Assembly: GCA_020845635.1 (NCBI GenBank)
Contig: JADLFI010000001.1
Coordinates: 1,256 to 65,255, forward strand
Length of the DNA stretch: 64,000 bases
Direction of reading: 5' to 3'
Source: Bacteroidia bacterium
GTDB taxonomy: Bacteria > Bacteroidota > Bacteroidia > UBA4408
Position numbers and translations under genes: made by a program. Below the pieces are notes generated by a model that was not told the origin of the DNA, did no database searches, and saw only the letters and a list, made by a program, of their open reading frames with translations. Position 1 is the first letter of the stretch. Each line of letters opens with the position of its first letter. Positions 12,986 to 21,244 of this stretch are shown here, in pieces.

Positions 12986-14425
12986 ATGAACCAAACCAAC
13001 CAACTGCAACAAACCAATTACAAAGCCTTAACATCATTGGTTACGGTATTCTTTTTTTGGGGCTTTGTAGCTGCCAGTAACGATATTTTAATTCCTGTAT
13101 TTAAAAGTGCATTCTCTTTAACCCAAAGGCAAAGTCAGTTGGTGTCTTTTGCGTTCTATATTGCTTACACTGTTGGTTCTATTATATATATGCTTATTTC
13201 TTTAGCGATAAAGCAAGATTTAATAAACAAAATGGGTTATAAAAATAGTTTGGCTTTGGGTTTATTTATTTCAGCTTTAGGTACTTTGTTGTTTTATCCG
13301 GCAGCAAACTTACATTCCTACCCATTAATGCTCATGGGCTTGTTTGTGGTGGCACTTGGTTTCTCATTACAGCAAACCGTGGCTAATCCCTTAGCTATTT
13401 CATTAGGCCCTCACCAAACCGGAGCCAACCGATTAACTTTGGCAGGAGGTATCAATAATTTTGGAACAAGTATAGGACCTTTAATTATCAGCTATGCTAT
13501 TTTTGGTTCTTCTACAAATACAGAAACCACAATGAACATTGAAGGGGTAAAAATTCCTTACCTTATTTTAGGCATTGCTTTTTTGTTGGTGGCGCTTATG
13601 TTGAAATTTTCTAAAATTCCCAACCACCCCGATGATGTTCAGGAAGATGTAAAAAGGAATGAACACGATCGCAAGTCGGCACTTCAATACCCGCAATTAG
13701 TGTTAGGAATGATAGCTATCTTTGTTTATGTTGGGGTAGAAGTTTCAACTGCAAGCAATTTGCCCTACTATATGGAACAAAAATTACATATAGAAACGCA
13801 GTACATTGCTCCTTATATTTCATTGTATTGGGCAAGTTTAATGATTGGTCGTTGGTCGGGTGCGGTGGAAGTATTAAGTGCCAAAAAGGAGGTTCAGCGC
13901 TTGTTGAAAATAGTTATGCCTTATTTGGCATTTGCAGCTTTTTTGCTTATAAACATTATTGCCGGCCATAACCTGGCGCCTTTTTATATGTATGCCGGTG
14001 TAATTATTTTATTGATTATTGCCGATATGATGAGTAATGGAAACCCTATACGTATGTTGTTGCTGTTTTCTATTATGGGGGCTTTGGGAATTCTTGTTGG
14101 AATGAATGCCGGGGGTATGATTAGTGTGTATGCCTTTACCAGCGTGGGTTTGTTTTGCAGCACTTTGTGGCCTTGCATTTTTGCACTCGCTATTAGCGGT
14201 TTAGGAAAAAATACAAGTCAGGGGAGCAGTTTTTTAATTATGATGATAATGGGTGGTGGAGTAGTTAGCTGGATACAAGGTTACGTAGCCGATAAAACAG
14301 ATATTGAAACAAGCTATTGGGTTGGTGTAATATGTTTCTTATATCTTATTTTTTATGCCATTGCCGTTAAACGCATTTTACATTTGCAAGGTATAAGTTA
14401 TGAAACCAACCAACTAAGCCACTAA
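12986..14425 (+). CDS. MFS sugar permease, FucP/GluP family
   Basis: VFFFWGF...NDILIP, LQQTVANP, YVGVEV, LWPCIFALA motifs; 12 or more TM segments. Confidence 0.88.
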   Translation: MNQTNQLQQTNYKALTSLVTVFFFWGFVAASNDILIPVFKSAFSLTQRQSQLVSFAFYIAYTVGSIIYMLISLAIKQDLINKMGYKNSLALGLFISALGTLLFYPAANLHSYPLMLMGLFVVALGFSLQQTVANPLAISLGPHQTGANRLTLAGGINNFGTSIGPLIISYAIFGSSTNTETTMNIEGVKIPYLILGIAFLLVALMLKFSKIPNHPDDVQEDVKRNEHDRKSALQYPQLVLGMIAIFVYVGVEVSTASNLPYYMEQKLHIETQYIAPYISLYWASLMIGRWSGAVEVLSAKKEVQRLLKIVMPYLAFAAFLLINIIAGHNLAPFYMYAGVIILLIIADMMSNGNPIRMLLLFSIMGALGILVGMNAGGMISVYAFTSVGLFCSTLWPCIFALAISGLGKNTSQGSSFLIMMIMGGGVVSWIQGYVADKTDIETSYWVGVICFLYLIFYAIAVKRILHLQGISYETNQLSH

Positions 14426-14514
14426 TTAATGCAATAAGAAGTATTGTCTGCCTTTTGATTGTGCGTTGGTGTTTGCCTTTTTTTCTTGTATGACTTGTTT
14501 GTTCTAATTTGTTC

Positions 14515-14633
14515 AATTACGAATTATTAATTATGAATTATGAATTACGAATTACGAATTGTTAATTACGAATTATGAATTACGAATTATGAATTATGAA
14601 TTACGAATTACGAATTATGAATTACGAATTACG
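14515..14633 (+). repeat. heptamer tandem array, 17 x AATTA(C/T)G-type units
   Basis: Parses cleanly into 17 units (aattacg, aattatg, plus one aattatt and one aattgtt); the last unit contains the TAA stop of the adjacent gene. Confidence 0.97.
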
Positions 14634-14982
14634 ATTTTTTTATTGTTGTTTGAATTTTTCCAATTATTCTACAAATTTCTTCACTGTCATTTATTAAACT
14701 ATCTGCCATTTCTTTCGACAAATAATCTGTTGCATATAGTAATTTTATCCAATACAAAGTTTCTCTAGCTTCTTTGTAGGCAATTGAAATTTTTGAAATA
14801 AAATCTGCTTTTGATTGCCCACCAATCGCTTCTTCTACATTTGCTCCAATAGATGTACCGCTTCGAAGCAGTTGTTTTGATAACACAAACTCTTTCTTTT
14901 CATTCCTTAAGATTTTATATGTGTTTACAATTCTAATTGCAAATGCAAAACTTTTTGTTTGAATAACGTTGTCCTCTTTCAT
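14629..14982 (-). CDS. four-helix-bundle protein (TIGR02436 / 23S-IVS-protein-like), copy 1, 117 aa
   Basis: KSFAFAIRIV...SKQLLRSGTSIGANVEEA...S.ADFISK.SI..KEARET.YWI.LL family pattern; start placed at ATG 14982 by alignment with copy 2. Confidence 0.9.
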   Translation of the reverse strand: MKEDNVIQTKSFAFAIRIVNTYKILRNEKKEFVLSKQLLRSGTSIGANVEEAIGGQSKADFISKISIAYKEARETLYWIKLLYATDYLSKEMADSLINDSEEICRIIGKIQTTIKKS

Positions 14983-14984
14983 TT

Positions 14985-15005
14985 CGTAATTTTTAATTCG
15001 TAATT
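14985..15005 (-). repeat. heptamer array, 3 units, inverted relative to 14515-14633
   Basis: Minus strand aattacg-aattaaa-aattacg, ending 2 nt before the ATG of copy 1. Confidence 0.85.
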
Positions 15006-15064
15006 GTTTCAACTCCCCAAACTTCACTGATTTTGTCTTTTATTTTTTGTTCAAAGATTTCAAA
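14993..15064 (-). pseudogene. orphan 3' end of a second M-S allele
   Basis: Translates as FEIFEQKIKDKISEVWGVETITN*, parallel to the M-S end ...QNQIKSVIDKVWGINENK*; an in-frame stop lies immediately upstream. Confidence 0.7.
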
Positions 15065-15069
15065 TTAAT

Positions 15070-15111
15070 AAATACGAATTACGAATTGTTAATTACGAAT
15101 TACGAATCACG
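15070..15111 (+). repeat. heptamer array, 6 units
   Basis: aaatacg-aattacg-aattgtt-aattacg-aattacg-aatcacg; the last unit contains the TGA stop of copy 2. Confidence 0.92.
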
Positions 15112-15460
15112 AGTGTTTCATTGTTATTTGAATTTTTCCGATAATTCTACAAATTTCTTCACAGTCATTTATTAAACTTTCTGCCATTTCTTTCGACAAA
15201 TAGTCTGTTGCATTTAGTAATTTTATCCAATACAAAGTTTCTCTAGCTTCTTTGTAGGTAATTGAAATTTTTGAAATAAAATCTGCTTTTGATTGCCCAC
15301 CAATGGCTTCTTCTACATTTGCTCCAATAGATGTACCGCTTCGAAGCAGTTGTTTTGATAACACAAACTCTTTCTTTTCATTCCTTAAGATTTTATATGT
15401 GTTTACAATTCTAATTGCAAATGCAAAAGACTTTTCTTGTATTACATTATTTGTTTTCAT
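15107..15460 (-). CDS. four-helix-bundle protein (TIGR02436-like), copy 2, 117 aa
   Basis: 107/117 aa identical to copy 1; its start overlaps the last 14 nt of the M-S frame. Confidence 0.9.
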   Translation of the reverse strand: MKTNNVIQEKSFAFAIRIVNTYKILRNEKKEFVLSKQLLRSGTSIGANVEEAIGGQSKADFISKISITYKEARETLYWIKLLNATDYLSKEMAESLINDCEEICRIIGKIQITMKHS

Positions 15461-15509
15461 TTATTCCCCAAACTTTATCAATTACAGATTTTATTTGATT
15501 TTGCTTCTC

Positions 15510-15537
15510 TGTAATTTTTAATTTGTAATTCGTAATT
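15510..15537 (-). repeat. heptamer array, 4 units, inside the M-S C-terminal helix (EITNYKLKITE)
   Basis: Minus strand aattacg-aattaca-aattaaa-aattaca. Confidence 0.85.
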
Positions 15538-16019
15538 TCTACCTCATAGCCTTCTATTTCGGCTACTATTTGTTGTTGTATTTCAAGTGGCGGAAGGGGG
15601 ATTTCTATTTCTGCTAAATCACTAGCAGTTATACTTGGATATTGTCCTTTACCACTCATCGCTACCATTTGTTCAACAATAACATCTTGATTTAATACAT
15701 AGTAAAGATACCTTCCTAAAACATTTTCATTTTCTGAAAGTACAGCAAACCCTGTTGAAGCAATGCAATTTTAGGAACATTTTCCATATATGCAAATGCT
15801 CTTAAATTTGGTCTTACTGTCGATACTAGAACATCACCATTTTTTACAACTCGTCTTGCTCTACTTGGCGCTTCATTAGGATTTATCCATTTGTTGAAAG
15901 AAACTTTTCCTGTTCCATTTTCAACTGCTTCAATATCGATATAAGCAAACGGCTCATTCTTAAAGATTTTTATTGGGTCAATTGCTTGTGAATTTATTTT
16001 GACAACATCACCAAGTTTC

Positions 16020-16054
16020 ACTAATTCGTAATTCGTAATTTTTAATTCTTCATT
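16020..16054 (-). repeat. heptamer array, 5 units, at the methyltransferase/TRD junction (NEELKITNYELV)
   Basis: Minus strand aatgaag-aattaaa-aattacg-aattacg-aattagt. Confidence 0.85.
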
Positions 16055-16135
16055 CTTAAAATACCTTTCACCACTCAACACCACATCTTTATTCGCTAAA
16101 ACCGTTTCCTTTTCAACCAAAGTTGCCATTTTTTC

Positions 16136-16241
16136 AATTACGAATGATGAATTACCAATTACGGTTTTCAAGGCAGTAAATATTTCATCTTTTGTAATTT
16201 CTAATTCGTAATTTGTAATTATTTCCTTGTAATTCGTAATT
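16136..16241. repeat. in-frame inverted heptamer pair inside hsdM (4-unit arm, 29-nt loop, 6-unit arm)
   Basis: Arms at 16136-16163 and 16193-16241; 22/28 matches in the inner register; translated AITNYKEIITNYELEITK...VIGNSSFVI. Confidence 0.85.
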
Positions 16242-16831
16242 GCCTCCAAAGCGGCAGGTAAATCGTTTTTATCAATTATTCTGCGTTGTGCTCCAAGGTC
16301 AAAACCATCGTTTTCAATTTTCAAAAACAAAATGTGTTGGCTTTTCTTCGCTAACTTTTTATCTAAAATCAATACACTTGTTTTTACTCCGCTATAGGGT
16401 TGAAACACGCCTGCGGGCAAACTAATCACGGCTATTAAACTATCTTGCACCAACATTTTTCGCAATTGTTTGTAAGCGGTTTGGCTGGTGGCTACTATGC
16501 CGTTGGGTACTACAATTCCTGCACGTCCGTTGCTGTTCAGGTGTTCGGCAATGTAATCGGTAAACAACACTTCGGCTTTGTTGGCTTGTACGCCAAATTT
16601 CTTGTGTGGTCGTATGCCACCTTTTGGTGTCATAAAGGGCGGGTTTGCCAATATCACATCAAAGGTTTCCTGCCAACGGTCTTCACTGCTCAAGGTATCG
16701 TATTCGTGTATTTGCGGTGTAGCAAAGCCGTGTAAATACATATTTGCTAAACTCAACCGCACCATATCGGGGCTAATGTCGTAACCCACTATGTTTTGCC
16801 CAAGTTTTCTGCGTTCGTCAGGTGTTAAGCC

Positions 16832-16907
16832 AATCACGAATTTAGAATTACGAATTGCGGGTTTGTTTTTGTCGCTGTTTGTAATTGGTAATTCGTCATT
16901 TTTAATT
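16832..16907. repeat. in-frame inverted heptamer pair inside hsdM (4-unit arm, 20-nt loop, 4-unit arm)
   Basis: Arms at 16832-16859 and 16880-16907; 19/28 matches; translated IKNDELPIT...AIRNSKFVI. Confidence 0.8.
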
Positions 16908-17509
16908 GAATTATTTAAGATGTGTTTGTATGCACTCAACAAGAAACCGGCCGTTCCGCAAGCAGGATCAAGCACAGTTTCGTTTTTCTGTGGGTTTACA
17001 CAAGCAGTTACAAAATCAATAATGTGTCGGGGTGTTCTAAACTGTCCTGCATCGCCTTGGCTTCCCATTACACTCAACAGATACTCAAAAGCATCGCCCA
17101 ACTTTTCGCTGTGGCTGTATTCGAACTCGTTGATGTATTTTAAAAATAGTTTCAGCGTGGCAGGGTCACGGTAGGGCAGGTAAGCATTTTTAAAAATGTT
17201 TCGGAACAGTTCGGGAATATTCGGATTGGTGTTTAGTTTTTCCAATGCCTCACTGTAAAGCGAAAGCATATCCTGTCCGCTTAATGATGGGTCGAATAAT
17301 TTACGCCAACCGTATTTGGCATAATTGCCTGTAAAAAACTTGGCTTTGCCTTTAAATTTCTCCACGGCTTCCTTATCCATATCGTCCATAAACTTATAGA
17401 TAAGAGCTAATGTAATTTGCTCAATTTGGCTTTTGGGGTCGGGCACTTTGCCTACCAGCACATCGCGGCAATCATCAATATTTTTTTTGGTTATGTTGTC
17501 GAGCATAGT

Positions 17510-18221
17510 CTGTTATAATCATTTCACCCCTTCGGGGTTTTATAATAATGTCAGCCCTTCGGGCTTTTTTGTTTATTCCATTACGTTTTTTTATAATCAT
17601 TTCTTTTTGTTTATTCCATTACGTTTTTTTTATAATCATTTCATTCTATAATCATTTCACCCCTTCGGGGTTATTGTTTATTCCTATATCATAATCCATA
17701 ATTATATCAGCCCTTCGGGCTTTTTTGTTTCATTATCTAATCCCGAAGGGATGATAATATTGTAACAAAAAATTCCCATACTGTTACCCAACCCCGAAGG
17801 GGTGGCATTATTCAATCCATTCAAACAAATATTTTTCATCATATTCCATTCCATAATTATATCAGCCCTTCGGGCTTTTTGTTTATTCCATTACGTTTTT
17901 TTTATAATCATTTCATTCTATAATCATTTCACCCCTCCGGGGTTTTTGTTTATTCCTATATCATAATCTATAATTATATCAGCCCTTCGGGCTTTTTTGT
18001 TTATTCCATTACGTTTTTTTTATAATCATTTCATTCTATAATCATTTCACCCCTTCGGGGTTATTGTTTATTCCTATATCATAATCTATAATTATATCAG
18101 CCCTTCGGGCTTTTATTCATTTCATCCCATCGGGTTTTTTGTTCCATTATCTAATCCCGAAGGGATGATAATATTGTAACAAAAAATTCCCATACTGTTA
18201 CCCAACCCCGTAGGGGTGGCA
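17510..18221. repeat. REP-like palindrome array (13 hairpins A(C/G/T)CCC-TTC/GAA-GGG(G/C/A)T plus one degenerate copy)
   Basis: ACCCCTTCGGGGT-type at 17526, 17659, 17931 (TCC loop), 18049; AGCCCTTCGGGCT at 17553, 17709, 17864, 17981, 18099; opposite-orientation ATCCCGAAGGGAT at 17740, 18154 and ACCCCG(A/T)AGGGGT at 17791, 18205; 117-118 bp higher-order period. Confidence 0.92.
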
Positions 18222-18683
18222 TTATTCAATCCATTCAAACAAATATTTTTCATCATGTTCAATCTCAAACTTCTTCAAAAAATCTATATACTCTTCCCTA
18301 AACGTTTTCACTTTATGATGTTCTTCCTGATTCAAAATGTAATTGTACACATTCTCAATATGCGAATGAGAATATGAAAACGCACCATAACCTTCTTGCC
18401 ATTGAAACTTTCCTTGTATCAACTTATTATCATTTATCCATTTGCTTGAGTTGTTTTTTATATCTCTAACCAAATCCGATATGAGCATAGATGGTTTCAA
18501 CCCAACAAAAACATGAATATGGTCGGGCATACCATTCACTATAATTGATTTCTGGTTCTTCGCTTTGATAATCCCTGCAATATATTTATGCAAATCATCT
18601 TTCCATGCCTTTCCAATTAAATTTGCTCTGCCTTTAACTGCAAAAACAATCTGAATATAAATTTGTGAAAATGTGCCTGACAT
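18222..18683 (-). mobile_element. IS200/IS605-like Y1 HUH transposase, probably REP-associated (RAYT)
   Basis: IQIVFAVKGR, DHIH (HUH), FQWQEGYGAFS, catalytic Y in YILNQEEHH; directly followed by the REP array; no tnpB. Confidence 0.88.
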
Positions 18684-18685
18684 AA

Positions 18686-21244
18686 TTAACTGTTTAAAAA
18701 TTTATTCAACGGAACGTATGTCTTAACATAGTTAGGCAGTTTGCTTTTCATTTCGTCCGGCACACGGTTAAAATCATCTACATTAAACGTTGGGTTGTGA
18801 TATAATTCGGTAAAATCTTGTTGGTCTATTATTTTTCTTACACTTGGATCGGTGATGTAGGCGTAAAAGAAATAGCGTAAACCTTGTAAATCATTAATGT
18901 CGGAAACATTGTTGGTGCTAAGGAATTTTTCAAATTCATCATTCAATAAATCGTCTTTCCCTTTTATTTGATTACCGAAATAAATAAGTTCCAACAATTC
19001 ACGCCAACTAATTTTACGGTCAATCTTTAACGATCTGCGAAGTTTTTCCAAATCAAAATATTCTTCGGGTTTGTTGTCGTATTTCTCTTTGGCTCTTGCT
19101 GTGGCGATTTCAACATCACCTGCTTCCATCAGTTGTTTTATTTCTTCATCGGTTTTTACTTTCTCCTCAAACTGCTGAAAAAACATTCGGTCAATCTTCA
19201 TTCCTGTAAAGTCAACTTGCTGTTCGTTCCAAGTGGCAATTTTGTCGTTCTCCTTGTATTCGTAACCGTCACGCTTTGGTTTTAGCGTATTGTCATCAAC
19301 TGTTGGAATGTCATCGCCTTGCTTAAAGTTTTTAGGCAGTTTTAATACTTGGTCGTACTGATATTTTTCTTCAAAGTATTCGCAAGTGGCAAAGAAGTCA
19401 AAGAGCTTAAAAGTGGCTTTGTCAATGGAAATTGTTTCTTCTTCTCCCAGTTCGTTTTTGAATTTATGCTCAAACGTGTGAACACGAGTTCCACGCCCTT
19501 TTATCTGTATAAATTCTGTTGGAGAAAATATCGGTCGCATTAAAGCTAAGTTCAAAATATTGGGGCAATCCCAACCTGTGGTCATCATGCCTACCGTTAC
19601 ACAAACTCTTGCTTTACTAGTTTTATAAGAATCTAAAATTTCATTGCCTTTTGCAAAATTGCTAAAGCCTAATAATTTGTCGTTACTGTAATCAACGGTC
19701 ATTTGCTGACTGTTTTGCACATTAGAAGTTACCTGAACGGCAAAGTCGCTTTGATACTTGCCGGGGAAATATTGATGTGCATATTCATTGAGTAATTGAG
19801 CCAATTTTGCAGCGTGATTTTGCGAAACGGCAAAAACTAAACTCTTTCCAAATTCTCCGTTAATCGGGTCTTTCAATCCATTTTCAATAAATGTTTTGCA
19901 AAACACTCGGTTGGTTTCATCGCTAAAAAATTTCCGCTCAAAGTGATTTTGTTTGTATTTCACTTCTTCCAAAACATCTTCCTGCTCGCTGGTGGCAACC
20001 GTAACCATTACGCCATAACCCTGCTCAGAAAGCAGTTTGGTAGTTACATCTGTTCTTGCATCCACAACAATAGGCTGTCGCAAATAGCCGTCTTTAGCAC
20101 CGTCCACAAGCGAATAACGATACGTTGGAATGCCACTCTCACAACCAAAGGTAGTGTAAGTGTCAAGCAACATTCTACGTTCAAGTTCTCTGGGGTCTTC
20201 AATATTTTCGGTGTCCAAATGTTTTAAATAGTCCTTTGGTGTGGCTGTCAAGCCCAATTTGTAACCCAAGAAATATTCAAACAAAGCTCGGCTGTTTCCA
20301 CCTCCTAACAATCGGTGCGATTCGTCAGAAATGATTAAATCAAAGTCGGTTGGTGAAAACAGTTTTTTGTATTTGTTATTCACCATTAACGATTGAATGG
20401 TAGTAACAACAATTTCTGCTTTTCTCCAGTCGTTGCGTTTTTCTTTGTAAACAACCGTTGTCAGGTCGTTCTTTAAATAGTTTGTAAAATCTTTTCTTGC
20501 TTGTTCTTCCAATTCCAAACGGTCAACCAAAAACAAAACTCGTCTTGCGTTGCCGGTTCTGTAAAACAATTTGATGATAGCAGCAGATGTCAGCGTTTTT
20601 CCTGTTCCTGTTGCCATTTCAAGCAAGAAACGTTTTTTGCCTTCGCTTACTGCTTTCTGAACGGCTTGAACTGCTTCAACTTGGTAATATCTTAAGAAGC
20701 GAAGTTTTAAATTGAAAATTAAGTCCTTCTTTTTCTGTTCGTCTTGAAACTCCGGTATTTGTTTGTAGTTTGGTAGCTGTGTCAATACAACATAGTCAGC
20801 ATTTACTTCTTCGCTAACTAATTTGTTCGGGTCGGGATTGAACTCATAATATTGTTTAATGGATTCCAATGTCGGGAAAACTTGAATTGGTTCAGGATTT
20901 CCGGATTCAATGTTCCATAAATAATGAAATGTGCCGTTAGATAGAATTACAAACTTTACTTTTTGCGACTTGGCGTAATTTCTTGCTTGTTCTTTTCCAA
21001 CAAGCGGATTCAGGCTTTCCTTTTTTGCTTCTAAAACAAGAACAGGATTTTGGTTTTCGTCAACTAATAAAAAGTCAATAAAGCCGTTTTTAGAATGTTC
21101 AAAATCTTCTCCTAAATCGTCCATTTTGATGGAAGATTCAAGTTTGATGGTGGCTTTACCTTTGTCCGTGTCAAAGAAACGCCAGCCAGCTTCTTCAAGC
21201 AGTTTGTTAATCTTAATTCTTGCCTTTGCTTCTTTTTCAGCCAT
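18686..21244 (-). CDS. hsdR: Type I restriction enzyme R subunit (EcoEI-like DEAD/DEAH helicase-nuclease)
   Basis: N-terminal PD-(D/E)xK (IDFLL...VLEAKK), MATGTGKT, DESHR, GLTATP, TTGWD, QIKGRGTR. Confidence 0.92.
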   Translation of the reverse strand: MAEKEAKARIKINKLLEEAGWRFFDTDKGKATIKLESSIKMDDLGEDFEHSKNGFIDFLLVDENQNPVLVLEAKKESLNPLVGKEQARNYAKSQKVKFVILSNGTFHYLWNIESGNPEPIQVFPTLESIKQYYEFNPDPNKLVSEEVNADYVVLTQLPNYKQIPEFQDEQKKKDLIFNLKLRFLRYYQVEAVQAVQKAVSEGKKRFLLEMATGTGKTLTSAAIIKLFYRTGNARRVLFLVDRLELEEQARKDFTNYLKNDLTTVVYKEKRNDWRKAEIVVTTIQSLMVNNKYKKLFSPTDFDLIISDESHRLLGGGNSRALFEYFLGYKLGLTATPKDYLKHLDTENIEDPRELERRMLLDTYTTFGCESGIPTYRYSLVDGAKDGYLRQPIVVDARTDVTTKLLSEQGYGVMVTVATSEQEDVLEEVKYKQNHFERKFFSDETNRVFCKTFIENGLKDPINGEFGKSLVFAVSQNHAAKLAQLLNEYAHQYFPGKYQSDFAVQVTSNVQNSQQMTVDYSNDKLLGFSNFAKGNEILDSYKTSKARVCVTVGMMTTGWDCPNILNLALMRPIFSPTEFIQIKGRGTRVHTFEHKFKNELGEEETISIDKATFKLFDFFATCEYFEEKYQYDQVLKLPKNFKQGDDIPTVDDNTLKPKRDGYEYKENDKIATWNEQQVDFTGMKIDRMFFQQFEEKVKTDEEIKQLMEAGDVEIATARAKEKYDNKPEEYFDLEKLRRSLKIDRKISWRELLELIYFGNQIKGKDDLLNDEFEKFLSTNNVSDINDLQGLRYFFYAYITDPSVRKIIDQQDFTELYHNPTFNVDDFNRVPDEMKSKLPNYVKTYVPLNKFLNS

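Follow-up and report, generated by a model that had tools for sequence, protein, structure and literature searches.

An orphan M~S tail between two four-helix-bundle genes as the probable displaced end of a two-TRD gene

The window, the whole 64-kb stretch of DNA that was analysed, contains between two four-helix-bundle (4HB) genes an orphan canonical tail of a type I restriction-modification (R-M) methylase-specificity (M~S) fusion gene on the minus strand (14993-15064). The stretch corresponds to the final 22 codons, with their stop, of the C-terminal dimerisation helix (D2) as found in M~S genes with two target-recognition domains (TRDs). This untranslated tail is probably the displaced 3' end of an ancestral two-TRD M~S gene, in which TRD2, together with the central helix before it and part of the last helix after it, would have given way to a 4HB cassette with a surrogate tail. 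Because the tail is cut off from its gene by a 4HB cassette, it is taken as a record of the remodelling of the locus and not as a working part of it. The homology of the orphan, the architecture of the locus and the recurrence of the arrangement elsewhere are direct observations. On this reading, the orphan would date and orient the remodelling of a type I R-M specificity gene, a natural conversion from two TRDs to one in which the replacement gene end derives from the leader of an inserted small gene cassette.

Identity of the orphan tail

Retranslation of the minus strand at 14993-15064 gives FEIFEQKIKDKISEVWGVETITN* (the asterisk marking the stop), exactly the peptide recorded in a preliminary description of the window that was made without database searches. 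The stretch lies between two PF05635/TIGR02436 4HB genes, copy A (15107-15460) and copy B (14629-14982). The preliminary description had read the peptide as an M~S C-terminus, a reading that a lack of hits to M~S or HsdS C-termini would have spoken against, and such hits were found. The 17-mer EIFEQKIKDKISEVWGV of the orphan tail is matched exactly, at 17 of 17 positions, in 11 of the best 120 M~S homologues and with three or fewer mismatches in 93 of the same 120, always 0-29 residues from the C-terminus. The peptide matches M~S homologues with E=3.8e-7 (tblastn), while the DNA shares 90% identity with the functioning 3' end of the M~S gene in the related locus L004 (8507-8577) over 71 of its 72 nt, stop included (blastn, E=3e-22), and 87% identical to the 3' end of the P0039 gene in L001. 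By these sequence comparisons the resemblance to an M~S C-terminus is far beyond chance, and the homology and the identical stop position assign the orphan to the C-terminal dimerisation helix of the type I R-M HsdS and M~S proteins.

The S subunit is organised as S1-D1~S2-D2, with an IPLPP motif before each dimerisation helix (PMC3874165). Aligned to this established architecture, the orphan tail corresponds to the distal two-thirds of helix D2 from a two-TRD protein (PMC3874165). It does not form part of an expressed S module, in which one frame would hold a TRD and the IPLPP motif. A TAA in the same frame stands right before the orphan, and the preceding 48 nt (15065-15112), an array of the AATTCGT type, place stops in three of three frames ahead of it. 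No in-frame ATG, GTG or TTG occurs in the 72-nt stretch, no TRD2 sequence was found between 15065 and 15447, and a search by eye detected no Bacteroidota-type promoter inside the tail.

The orphan might instead be a functional alternative end, reached through phase variation, RNA-level removal of the cassette or recoding, so that M~S switches between C-termini. The inverted arrays flanking cassette A could loop that cassette out, and the orphan occupies the loop of a predicted hairpin formed by the 3' array of cassette A and the 5' array of cassette B (RNA fold -29.8 kcal/mol, z=-3.5). Type I hsdS loci are also well known for switching (PMC7672463). Such a use is nevertheless very improbable, given that the orphan, directly oriented and lacking a TRD, would leave specificity unchanged, that a Y1 transposase is present but no invertase or integrase, and that M~S is frameshifted everywhere. 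No evidence for use of the orphan was found, and no supported alternative joint appears in the contigs of four DNA and four RNA runs, which are of low coverage. An inversion between the arrays of cassette A was also considered and rejected, as it would not join M~S to the orphan. Taken alone, the orphan tail is regarded as a relic for which a function is not likely.

Support for the junction in metagenome data

A 182-nt unitig (14921-15102) is identical in four independent metagenome runs from wastewater, biofilm and activated sludge. Since this unitig spans the start of 4HB copy B, the orphan tail and the 3' array of cassette A, the junction of the orphan tail is real. Unitigs with the A-type and the B-type leaders have similar, single-copy depth. 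About 28 nt are common to the two 3' arrays, which makes the k-mer paths locally ambiguous, and the evidence from the runs is short-read assembly through repeats. The assembled layout alone offers a linear path through every piece, and it agrees with independent assemblies from other organisms.

A chance resemblance or an assembly artefact is effectively refuted by these data. What would suit an artefact is the high AT and repeat content of this part of a metagenome assembly, together with De Bruijn paths that are ambiguous over the nucleotides common to the arrays. Against this stand the protein and DNA E-values given above, the unitig shared by all four runs, and the same layout in the independent assemblies L003, L006, L098 and L099.

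A supported alternative joint was sought in the four DNA runs and none was seen among their contigs, which are weak evidence of absence; metatranscriptome contigs over the locus are sparse. One joint in run X2 (15063>15565) was considered as an excision product and is read instead as another two-TRD allele in that sample, its short side being only 26 nt and its two sides being separated by unread letters. As a separate observation, k-mer depth over the array at 14496-14640 reaches about 4000 in run X2 and about 590 in run X4, in comparison to 4-12 for the flanking single-copy sequence. The heptamer arrays are extremely abundant across the community, and 4HB/heptamer cassettes are dispersed and very abundant in wastewater Bacteroidota.

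The current M~S gene and its tail

The M~S fusion gene (15447-17506, minus strand; Pfam N6_Mtase and Methylase_S) consists of an HsdM domain, a linker, one TRD and a tail, here called tail A. A one-base frameshift inside TRD1, located in an A4 run at 15769-15772 (minus strand), breaks the gene into ORFs of 596 and 73 aa; homologues were searched with a 686-aa query read through the frameshift from the HsdM domain to the tail. The frameshift is seen in all DNA contigs of the four runs, in a contig of one RNA run and in five further Logan contigs (L100-L104). As it occurs in every sample examined, the gene is a fixed pseudogene and the frameshift is not a sequencing error. The R-M system is probably inactive, judging from the broken reading frame; the hsdR of the locus is full length (852 aa).

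Tail A (15447-15560, minus strand), with the sequence EIEGYEVEITNYKLKITEKQNQIKSVIDKVWGINENK*, is a short-form dimerisation helix of the one-TRD kind that is physically linked with the 4HB gene. Its alignment to the tails of P0007, P0053 and P0071, all one-TRD family members, is free of gaps, and the tails of P0052 and P0058 are nearly the same. The TRD1 of the window is that of the two-TRD proteins P0002 and P0003, and homology to both ends right after EIEGYQ. The DNA of the tail A leader shares 81-91% identity with the leader in L003, L006 and L004, the highest value being that to L004. Orphan tail and tail A form a direct repeat with 72% identity over 32 nt (15014-15045 and 15465-15496).

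The preliminary description proposed that a new specificity end had been added upstream and the tail of the older allele left behind. The second half of this proposal agrees with the present analysis, in which the downstream tail is the displaced one. The first half does not, because both tails are conserved dimerisation helix and not TRD, so that no specificity was added. Judged by sequence against the closest relative, the net change would be the loss of TRD2 to give a one-TRD gene, and the arrival upstream would be a 4HB cassette with a short-form tail leader. With its single TRD and tail A, the M~S product would be predicted to form a homodimer and to recognise a symmetric site.

Several further repeats are found within and beside the M~S gene. 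Two 'empty' inverted heptamer-array pairs lie in frame within the ORF, at 16836-16905 (..PITNS..AIRNSKFVIG..) and 16140-16245 (..AITNYKEIITNYELEIT..VIGNSSFVIE..), and a solo array lies at 16020-16045. In the empty pairs the would-be TAA codons have been mutated away, and similar inserts occur at the same loop positions in homologues; these pairs resemble translated palindromic-element insertions. A minor strain in runs X1 and X2 lacks 123 nt (16790-16912) around one empty pair. L004, L007 and L008 share with the window a Y1/IS200-like transposase gene (18222-18683 in the window) between hsdR and M~S. Next to this gene, at 17513-18114, GC-rich hairpins (..CACCCCTTCGGGC..) occur in tandem repeats of 19-118 nt, which show an approximately 100-fold excess depth in metagenomes and may be REP-like elements.

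Four-helix-bundle genes, cassettes and heptamer arrays

Both 4HB genes encode proteins of 117 aa on the minus strand and are full-length members of their families. Copy A scores 96.9 bits against PF05635 (E=1e-27) and 104.7 bits against TIGR02436 (E=2.9e-30), and copy B scores 97.9 bits (E=4.9e-28) and 106.2 bits, respectively, with cut-offs of 33.8 bits for PF05635 and 24 bits for TIGR02436. The ATG of copy A overlaps the end of the M~S frame. A PADLOC search with the 4HB proteins returned no model, and an Rfam search of 14000-18700 returned no match.

Each 4HB gene is enclosed by arrays of a 7-nt unit. The unit ATTACGA encodes the heptad peptide ITNYELR in all three frames, while its reverse, TCGTAAT, places a TAA in all three. 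With a unit that is open in one direction and closed by TAA in the other, one side of a cassette is readable and the other always stops translation. Matches to the heptamer are concentrated at the locus, 28 of the 30 in the 64-kb window falling within 14515-16896, where 1.1 would be expected by chance.

In cassette A, the 5' array (15511-15548, minus strand, ATTACGA orientation) is open in all frames and lies inside the M~S frame. The 3' array (15065-15112, minus strand, AATTCGT orientation) has TAA in every frame and forms, with its distal end, the upstream junction of the orphan tail. The two pair as inverted repeats over 27 nt (15077-15103 with 15511-15537, 81% complementary). In cassette B, the 5' array (14983-15005, minus strand) supplies the last codons (ITN*) of the orphan tail and reaches the ATG of 4HB copy B. 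It pairs in inverted orientation with 14564-14628 (91% complementary), part of a long 3' array (14515-14637, minus strand) of about 17 units. With regard to phase variation by simple sequence repeats, the arrays within the M~S ORF are short and imperfect, and no length variants were seen in Logan contigs, which drop rare variants.

Two cassette forms can be distinguished, as the arrangement of the leader differs among L001, L003, L004, L006, L008 and the window. In the type B cassette (L001, L008 and copy B of the window), the 5' array is followed directly by the ATG, whereas in the type A cassette (L003, L004, L006 and copy A of the window) tail A stands between the 5' array and the ATG. The preliminary description saw in the locus two tandem modules, each of an M~S tail, a 4HB gene and an array. 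This layout is indeed present twice, but the order of the parts is array-tail-ATG in module A and tail-array-ATG in module B.

Over about 190 nt starting at codon 11 (14762-14950 and 15240-15428), the identity of the two 4HB genes is 100%, and beyond this tract it is about 97%, in comparison to about 83% for orthologues. A direct repeat of 300 nt is present at a spacing of 478 nt. The first 10 codons of the two genes differ, and their leaders are unrelated and not collinear. This sharp 5' boundary suggests that the identity of the bodies likely reflects gene conversion between neighbouring copies and not a simple tandem duplication, although the near-identity is compatible with local duplication too.

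It is quite unlikely, on balance, that unequal crossing-over or slippage between arrays copied tail, 4HB gene and array in place, with the upstream copy diverging afterwards. The near-identical bodies and the spacing of the direct repeat fit such a local tandem duplication, as do array-associated examples elsewhere, namely L091, where tail and array are doubled around a 4HB gene, and L097 and L094, where 4HB 3' fragments and arrays are repeated. The non-collinear leaders and the different first 10 codons do not fit it, and the identical bodies are explained by gene conversion. Moreover, the two tails are 72% identical over 32 nt only, and the orthologues of tail A (81-91% identity) are the tail A copies of L003, L006 and L004 and not the orphan.

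Outside R-M loci, close 4HB homologues are dispersed across housekeeping contexts. In L097 (4340-4800) and L094 (4360-4660), on the mraZ side of such a context, an intact 4HB gene is followed by four to five tandem repeats of a short 4HB 3' fragment and a heptamer array. The arrays appear to drive local duplication at these two loci.

Related loci and the recurrence of displaced tails

Two TRDs and a length of at least 780 aa characterise 111 of the best 120 M~S homologues, and proteins with the canonical tail are about 840 aa long. Nearly all two-TRD homologues among these 120 end in ...LVNANKRLIEIFEQKIKDKISEVWGVKEEVETV. One-TRD members of the M~S family occur naturally and across phyla. L004 is the nearest locus throughout, with identities of 90% for hsdR, 93% for the Y1 transposase, 90% for TRD1 and 90% for the orphan tail.

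The preliminary description had suggested looking for intact M~S alleles that share the end of the orphan and are followed by a 4HB gene. Such alleles exist in L001/L002 (P0039) and L004/L005 (P0003), with the common ending ...IEIFEQKIK(D/N)KI(S/G)EVWGV(E/K)TI(T/A)N*. The intact gene of L001 ends in ...GEVWGVETITN*, giving the same junction with the 5' heptamer array and the downstream 4HB gene as is found in the orphan. In L004/L005, the complete two-TRD gene ends in ...ISEVWGVKTIAN* and is followed by the 5' array and by an untranslated KITEKQNQIKSVIGKVWGINENE* that overlaps the 4HB ATG. In L004 this leader is 91% identical in DNA to tail A of the window, though it lies outside M~S there.

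In L003, L006 and L098/L099, the tail A leader is fused in frame to a one-TRD M~S. The TRD1 of L003 and that of L006/L098/L099 differ from the TRD1 of the window and from each other. All loci found that combine one TRD with tail A also have an orphan canonical tail, placed immediately behind the 3' array of the cassette. The orphan begins with ALVNGNKKLIALFEQ... (ALVNG..) in L003, with ANKRLIEIFEQ... in L006 and L098/L099, the junction of the latter pair repeating that of L006, and with EIFEQ... in the window. No orphan tail is present at L007, which has one TRD and the TRD1 of the window but no cassette. L013, tried as a further one-TRD locus with an orphan, was rejected, as it encodes a normal two-TRD protein of 845 aa.

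Second tails also occur beside two-TRD genes. In L008, a partial second tail lies beyond an inserted 4HB gene, the copies being FEKKIKEKIGEVWGG* and FEQKIKEKIGEVWGVKEEVETAI*, and L091 is a second case of this kind. A metagenome scan for a 3' array followed by FEQKIK yielded four stretches, of which L091 alone was relevant. In a genome scan that sampled species across phyla, 10 of 80 species loci carry a direct second copy of the tail downstream of M~S. Between the copies lie a 4HB gene (L008), an AIPR abortive-infection gene (L028), genes without assigned function of 258 aa (L056, with three tail copies) and 242 aa (L050, with a one-TRD M~S upstream), a 61-aa ORF (L048), short non-coding inserts (L038 and L069), about 200 nt of AT-rich sequence (L037), 3 kb (L033), or almost nothing (L045, likewise with a one-TRD M~S upstream). 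Since second tails recur among these 80 species loci, the 3' end of M~S is a recurrent insertion point and a displaced tail copy its usual scar. In several Bacteroidota loci, M~S and 4HB are followed by a conserved gene pair of 258 aa (no family match) and 156 aa (weak PIN match, E=1.4e-4), located at 8967-10206 in L001, 9108-10347 in L004, 3226-4465 in L006 and 2503-3742 in L098 and absent from the window.

Remnants of M~S are also found apart from R-M systems. Five assemblies (L092-L096; about 3270-4660 in L094) contain a decayed M~S 3' remnant that retains the end of TRD2 and the canonical tail and is interrupted by a stop. After it come long arrays, a 3' fragment of a 4HB gene and then an intact one, the whole being flanked by lactamase_B and valS in a neighbourhood where other R-M genes are absent. 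As M~S 3' remnants thus adjoin 4HB cassettes where no R-M system is present, the tail fragment of the window could have come with cassette B and not be a local relic; fragment and cassette would then have moved together as one mobile or recombining module, with the M~S 3' fragment on its upstream side. The clear association of tail A with the 4HB gene in L004 and the scatter of close 4HB homologues in housekeeping contexts also speak for such a route. It is nonetheless unlikely, since the fragment sits exactly where the end of a two-TRD gene would be and is closest to the tail of L004, the nearest relative across the locus. In addition, the intact gene in L001 has the same ETITN*/array/4HB junction, and L092-L096 can equally be the remains of a deleted R-M locus.

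History of the locus and its significance

On the preferred reading, in which the orphan is the displaced end of a resident two-TRD gene, the order of events and the recombination mechanism are inferred from the comparisons above. The ancestor would have resembled L001 and L004, with an M domain, TRD1, the central helix, TRD2 and a C-terminal helix ending in ...IEIFEQKIKDKISEVWGVETITN*, followed by a 4HB cassette. A gene like that of L001, with two TRDs, a tail ending in ETITN* and cassette B, would have received a module like that of L006, consisting of a short-form tail and cassette A. In the incoming type A cassette, the 4HB ORF would have been preceded by a 5' heptamer array and about 20 codons for a short-form dimerisation helix, and followed by a 3' heptamer array. 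The left crossover may have taken place in the conserved IPLPPLEIQQQIVAEIEGY stretch after TRD1 (roughly 60 nt, IPLPP...EGY), and the right join, presumably non-homologous, inside the region coding for D2; the right junction has no obvious homology.

By this exchange, TRD2 would have been lost along with the remainder of the central helix and the first part of D2, roughly 190 codons as judged against P0003. M~S would have come to end in the cassette's own tail, giving the one-TRD form, while the last 22 codons, the stop and the resident cassette B would have stayed downstream. The two 4HB bodies would have been homogenised later by gene conversion. A deletion between the TRD2-proximal ITNYE site and the downstream 5' array was rejected as an alternative route, as it would leave IIDGAKQ..NYKP residues, which the window does not have. 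No direct ancestor or intermediate of the strain was found in the genome collection, a collection that does not include the window's own genome. The differing junctions of L003, L006 and the window could reflect erosion and not independent events, which would count against the relic model.

A wider and more tentative proposal is that the 4HB-heptamer cassettes are self-complementing modules that insert into M~S genes where these code for coiled coils. The 3' end of M~S would then be an insertion site with the cargo bracketed by tail repeats, and the orphan would be the downstream 'attachment-site' copy and not random debris. Some cassettes carry a ready-made replacement dimerisation helix, and on this proposal their insertion would regenerate a complete gene end. 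Insertion could in this way turn a two-TRD enzyme with an asymmetric site into a one-TRD enzyme with a symmetric site. The cargo found between tail repeats includes 4HB genes, an AIPR abortive-infection gene and genes without assigned function, and this wider pattern is relevant to the rebuilding of specificity genes and defence islands. For annotation, short HsdS-like ORFs beside 4HB genes should be regarded as remnants.

Truncated one-TRD S subunits, the shuffling of TRDs and silent hsdS fragments are already well known (PMC3874165; PMC7672463). What is new is the agent, a 4HB gene between inverted 7-nt arrays that sometimes brings a replacement dimerisation helix, and the frequency of duplicated tails around cargo in the M~S family. 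A literature search for the tail-duplication and cassette pattern found no description of it in the library of papers covered, and one for PF05635, TIGR02436 or 4HB proteins in an R-M context returned only DGR/Avd and incidental mentions.

Comparison with known systems

The closest parallels to the current gene are half-length HsdS proteins. Truncated S subunits with one TRD homodimerise and recognise symmetric bipartite sites (PMC3874165). Like the half HsdS of EcoR124I-delta, EcoDXXI-delta and NgoAV and the homodimeric M~S gamma-methyltransferases, the gene of the window has one TRD and a single dimerisation helix. Unlike the half HsdS, it adjoins the unused end of a former two-TRD gene, and its new end comes from the leader of an inserted 4HB cassette. 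The gene of the window is also frameshifted.

In phase-variable hsdS loci, such as the SpnD39III ivr locus and the type I R-M system of Bacteroides fragilis, hsdS-derived sequence that is partial and has no promoter lies downstream of the expressed gene (PMC7672463; PMC7641763). The window likewise has partial hsdS-derived sequence downstream of a specificity gene. However, the orphan is direct and not inverted, consists of 22 codons of conserved helix with no TRD, and the inverted repeats of the window are heptamer arrays and not hsdS sequence. The window has no silent inverted copy of an alternative TRD, and no site-specific recombinase is adjacent, the only recombinase-like gene being the Y1/IS200-type transposase at 18222-18683. 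Heterogeneity of arrangement was not seen in the contigs of the four runs.

Certain integrative elements, such as tRNA- and tmRNA-targeting islands and prophages, insert at the 3' end of their target gene and bring along a surrogate for it. The topology of the window is alike, with a gene, a surrogate end, inserted DNA and a displaced native end in succession, and direct repeats of the gene end bracket the insert in the window as well as in L008, L091, L056, L028, L038 and L069. In the window this duplication amounts to the 72% identity over 32 nt between the two tails, and it is clearer in L008, L038, L069 and L056. Unlike these elements, there is no integrase in the cassettes or their flanks, the repeats vary in length (about 40-130 bp), and the positions of the junctions differ between loci; no precise excision or empty site is in evidence. 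In the window, insertion is further coupled to the loss of an internal domain.

The cargo itself recalls the intervening sequences of 23S rRNA and the Avd proteins of DGRs, Avd being a homologue of the PF05635 family (PMC10053308). The cargo gene of the window is PF05635/TIGR02436, the rRNA intervening sequences likewise encode PF05635 proteins, and their ORFs, like the 4HB gene, lie between inverted repeats that could form a long stem. The window differs in having a protein-coding R-M gene as the host and tandem arrays of a 7-nt unit as the flanks, and in having no reverse transcriptase or other DGR parts.
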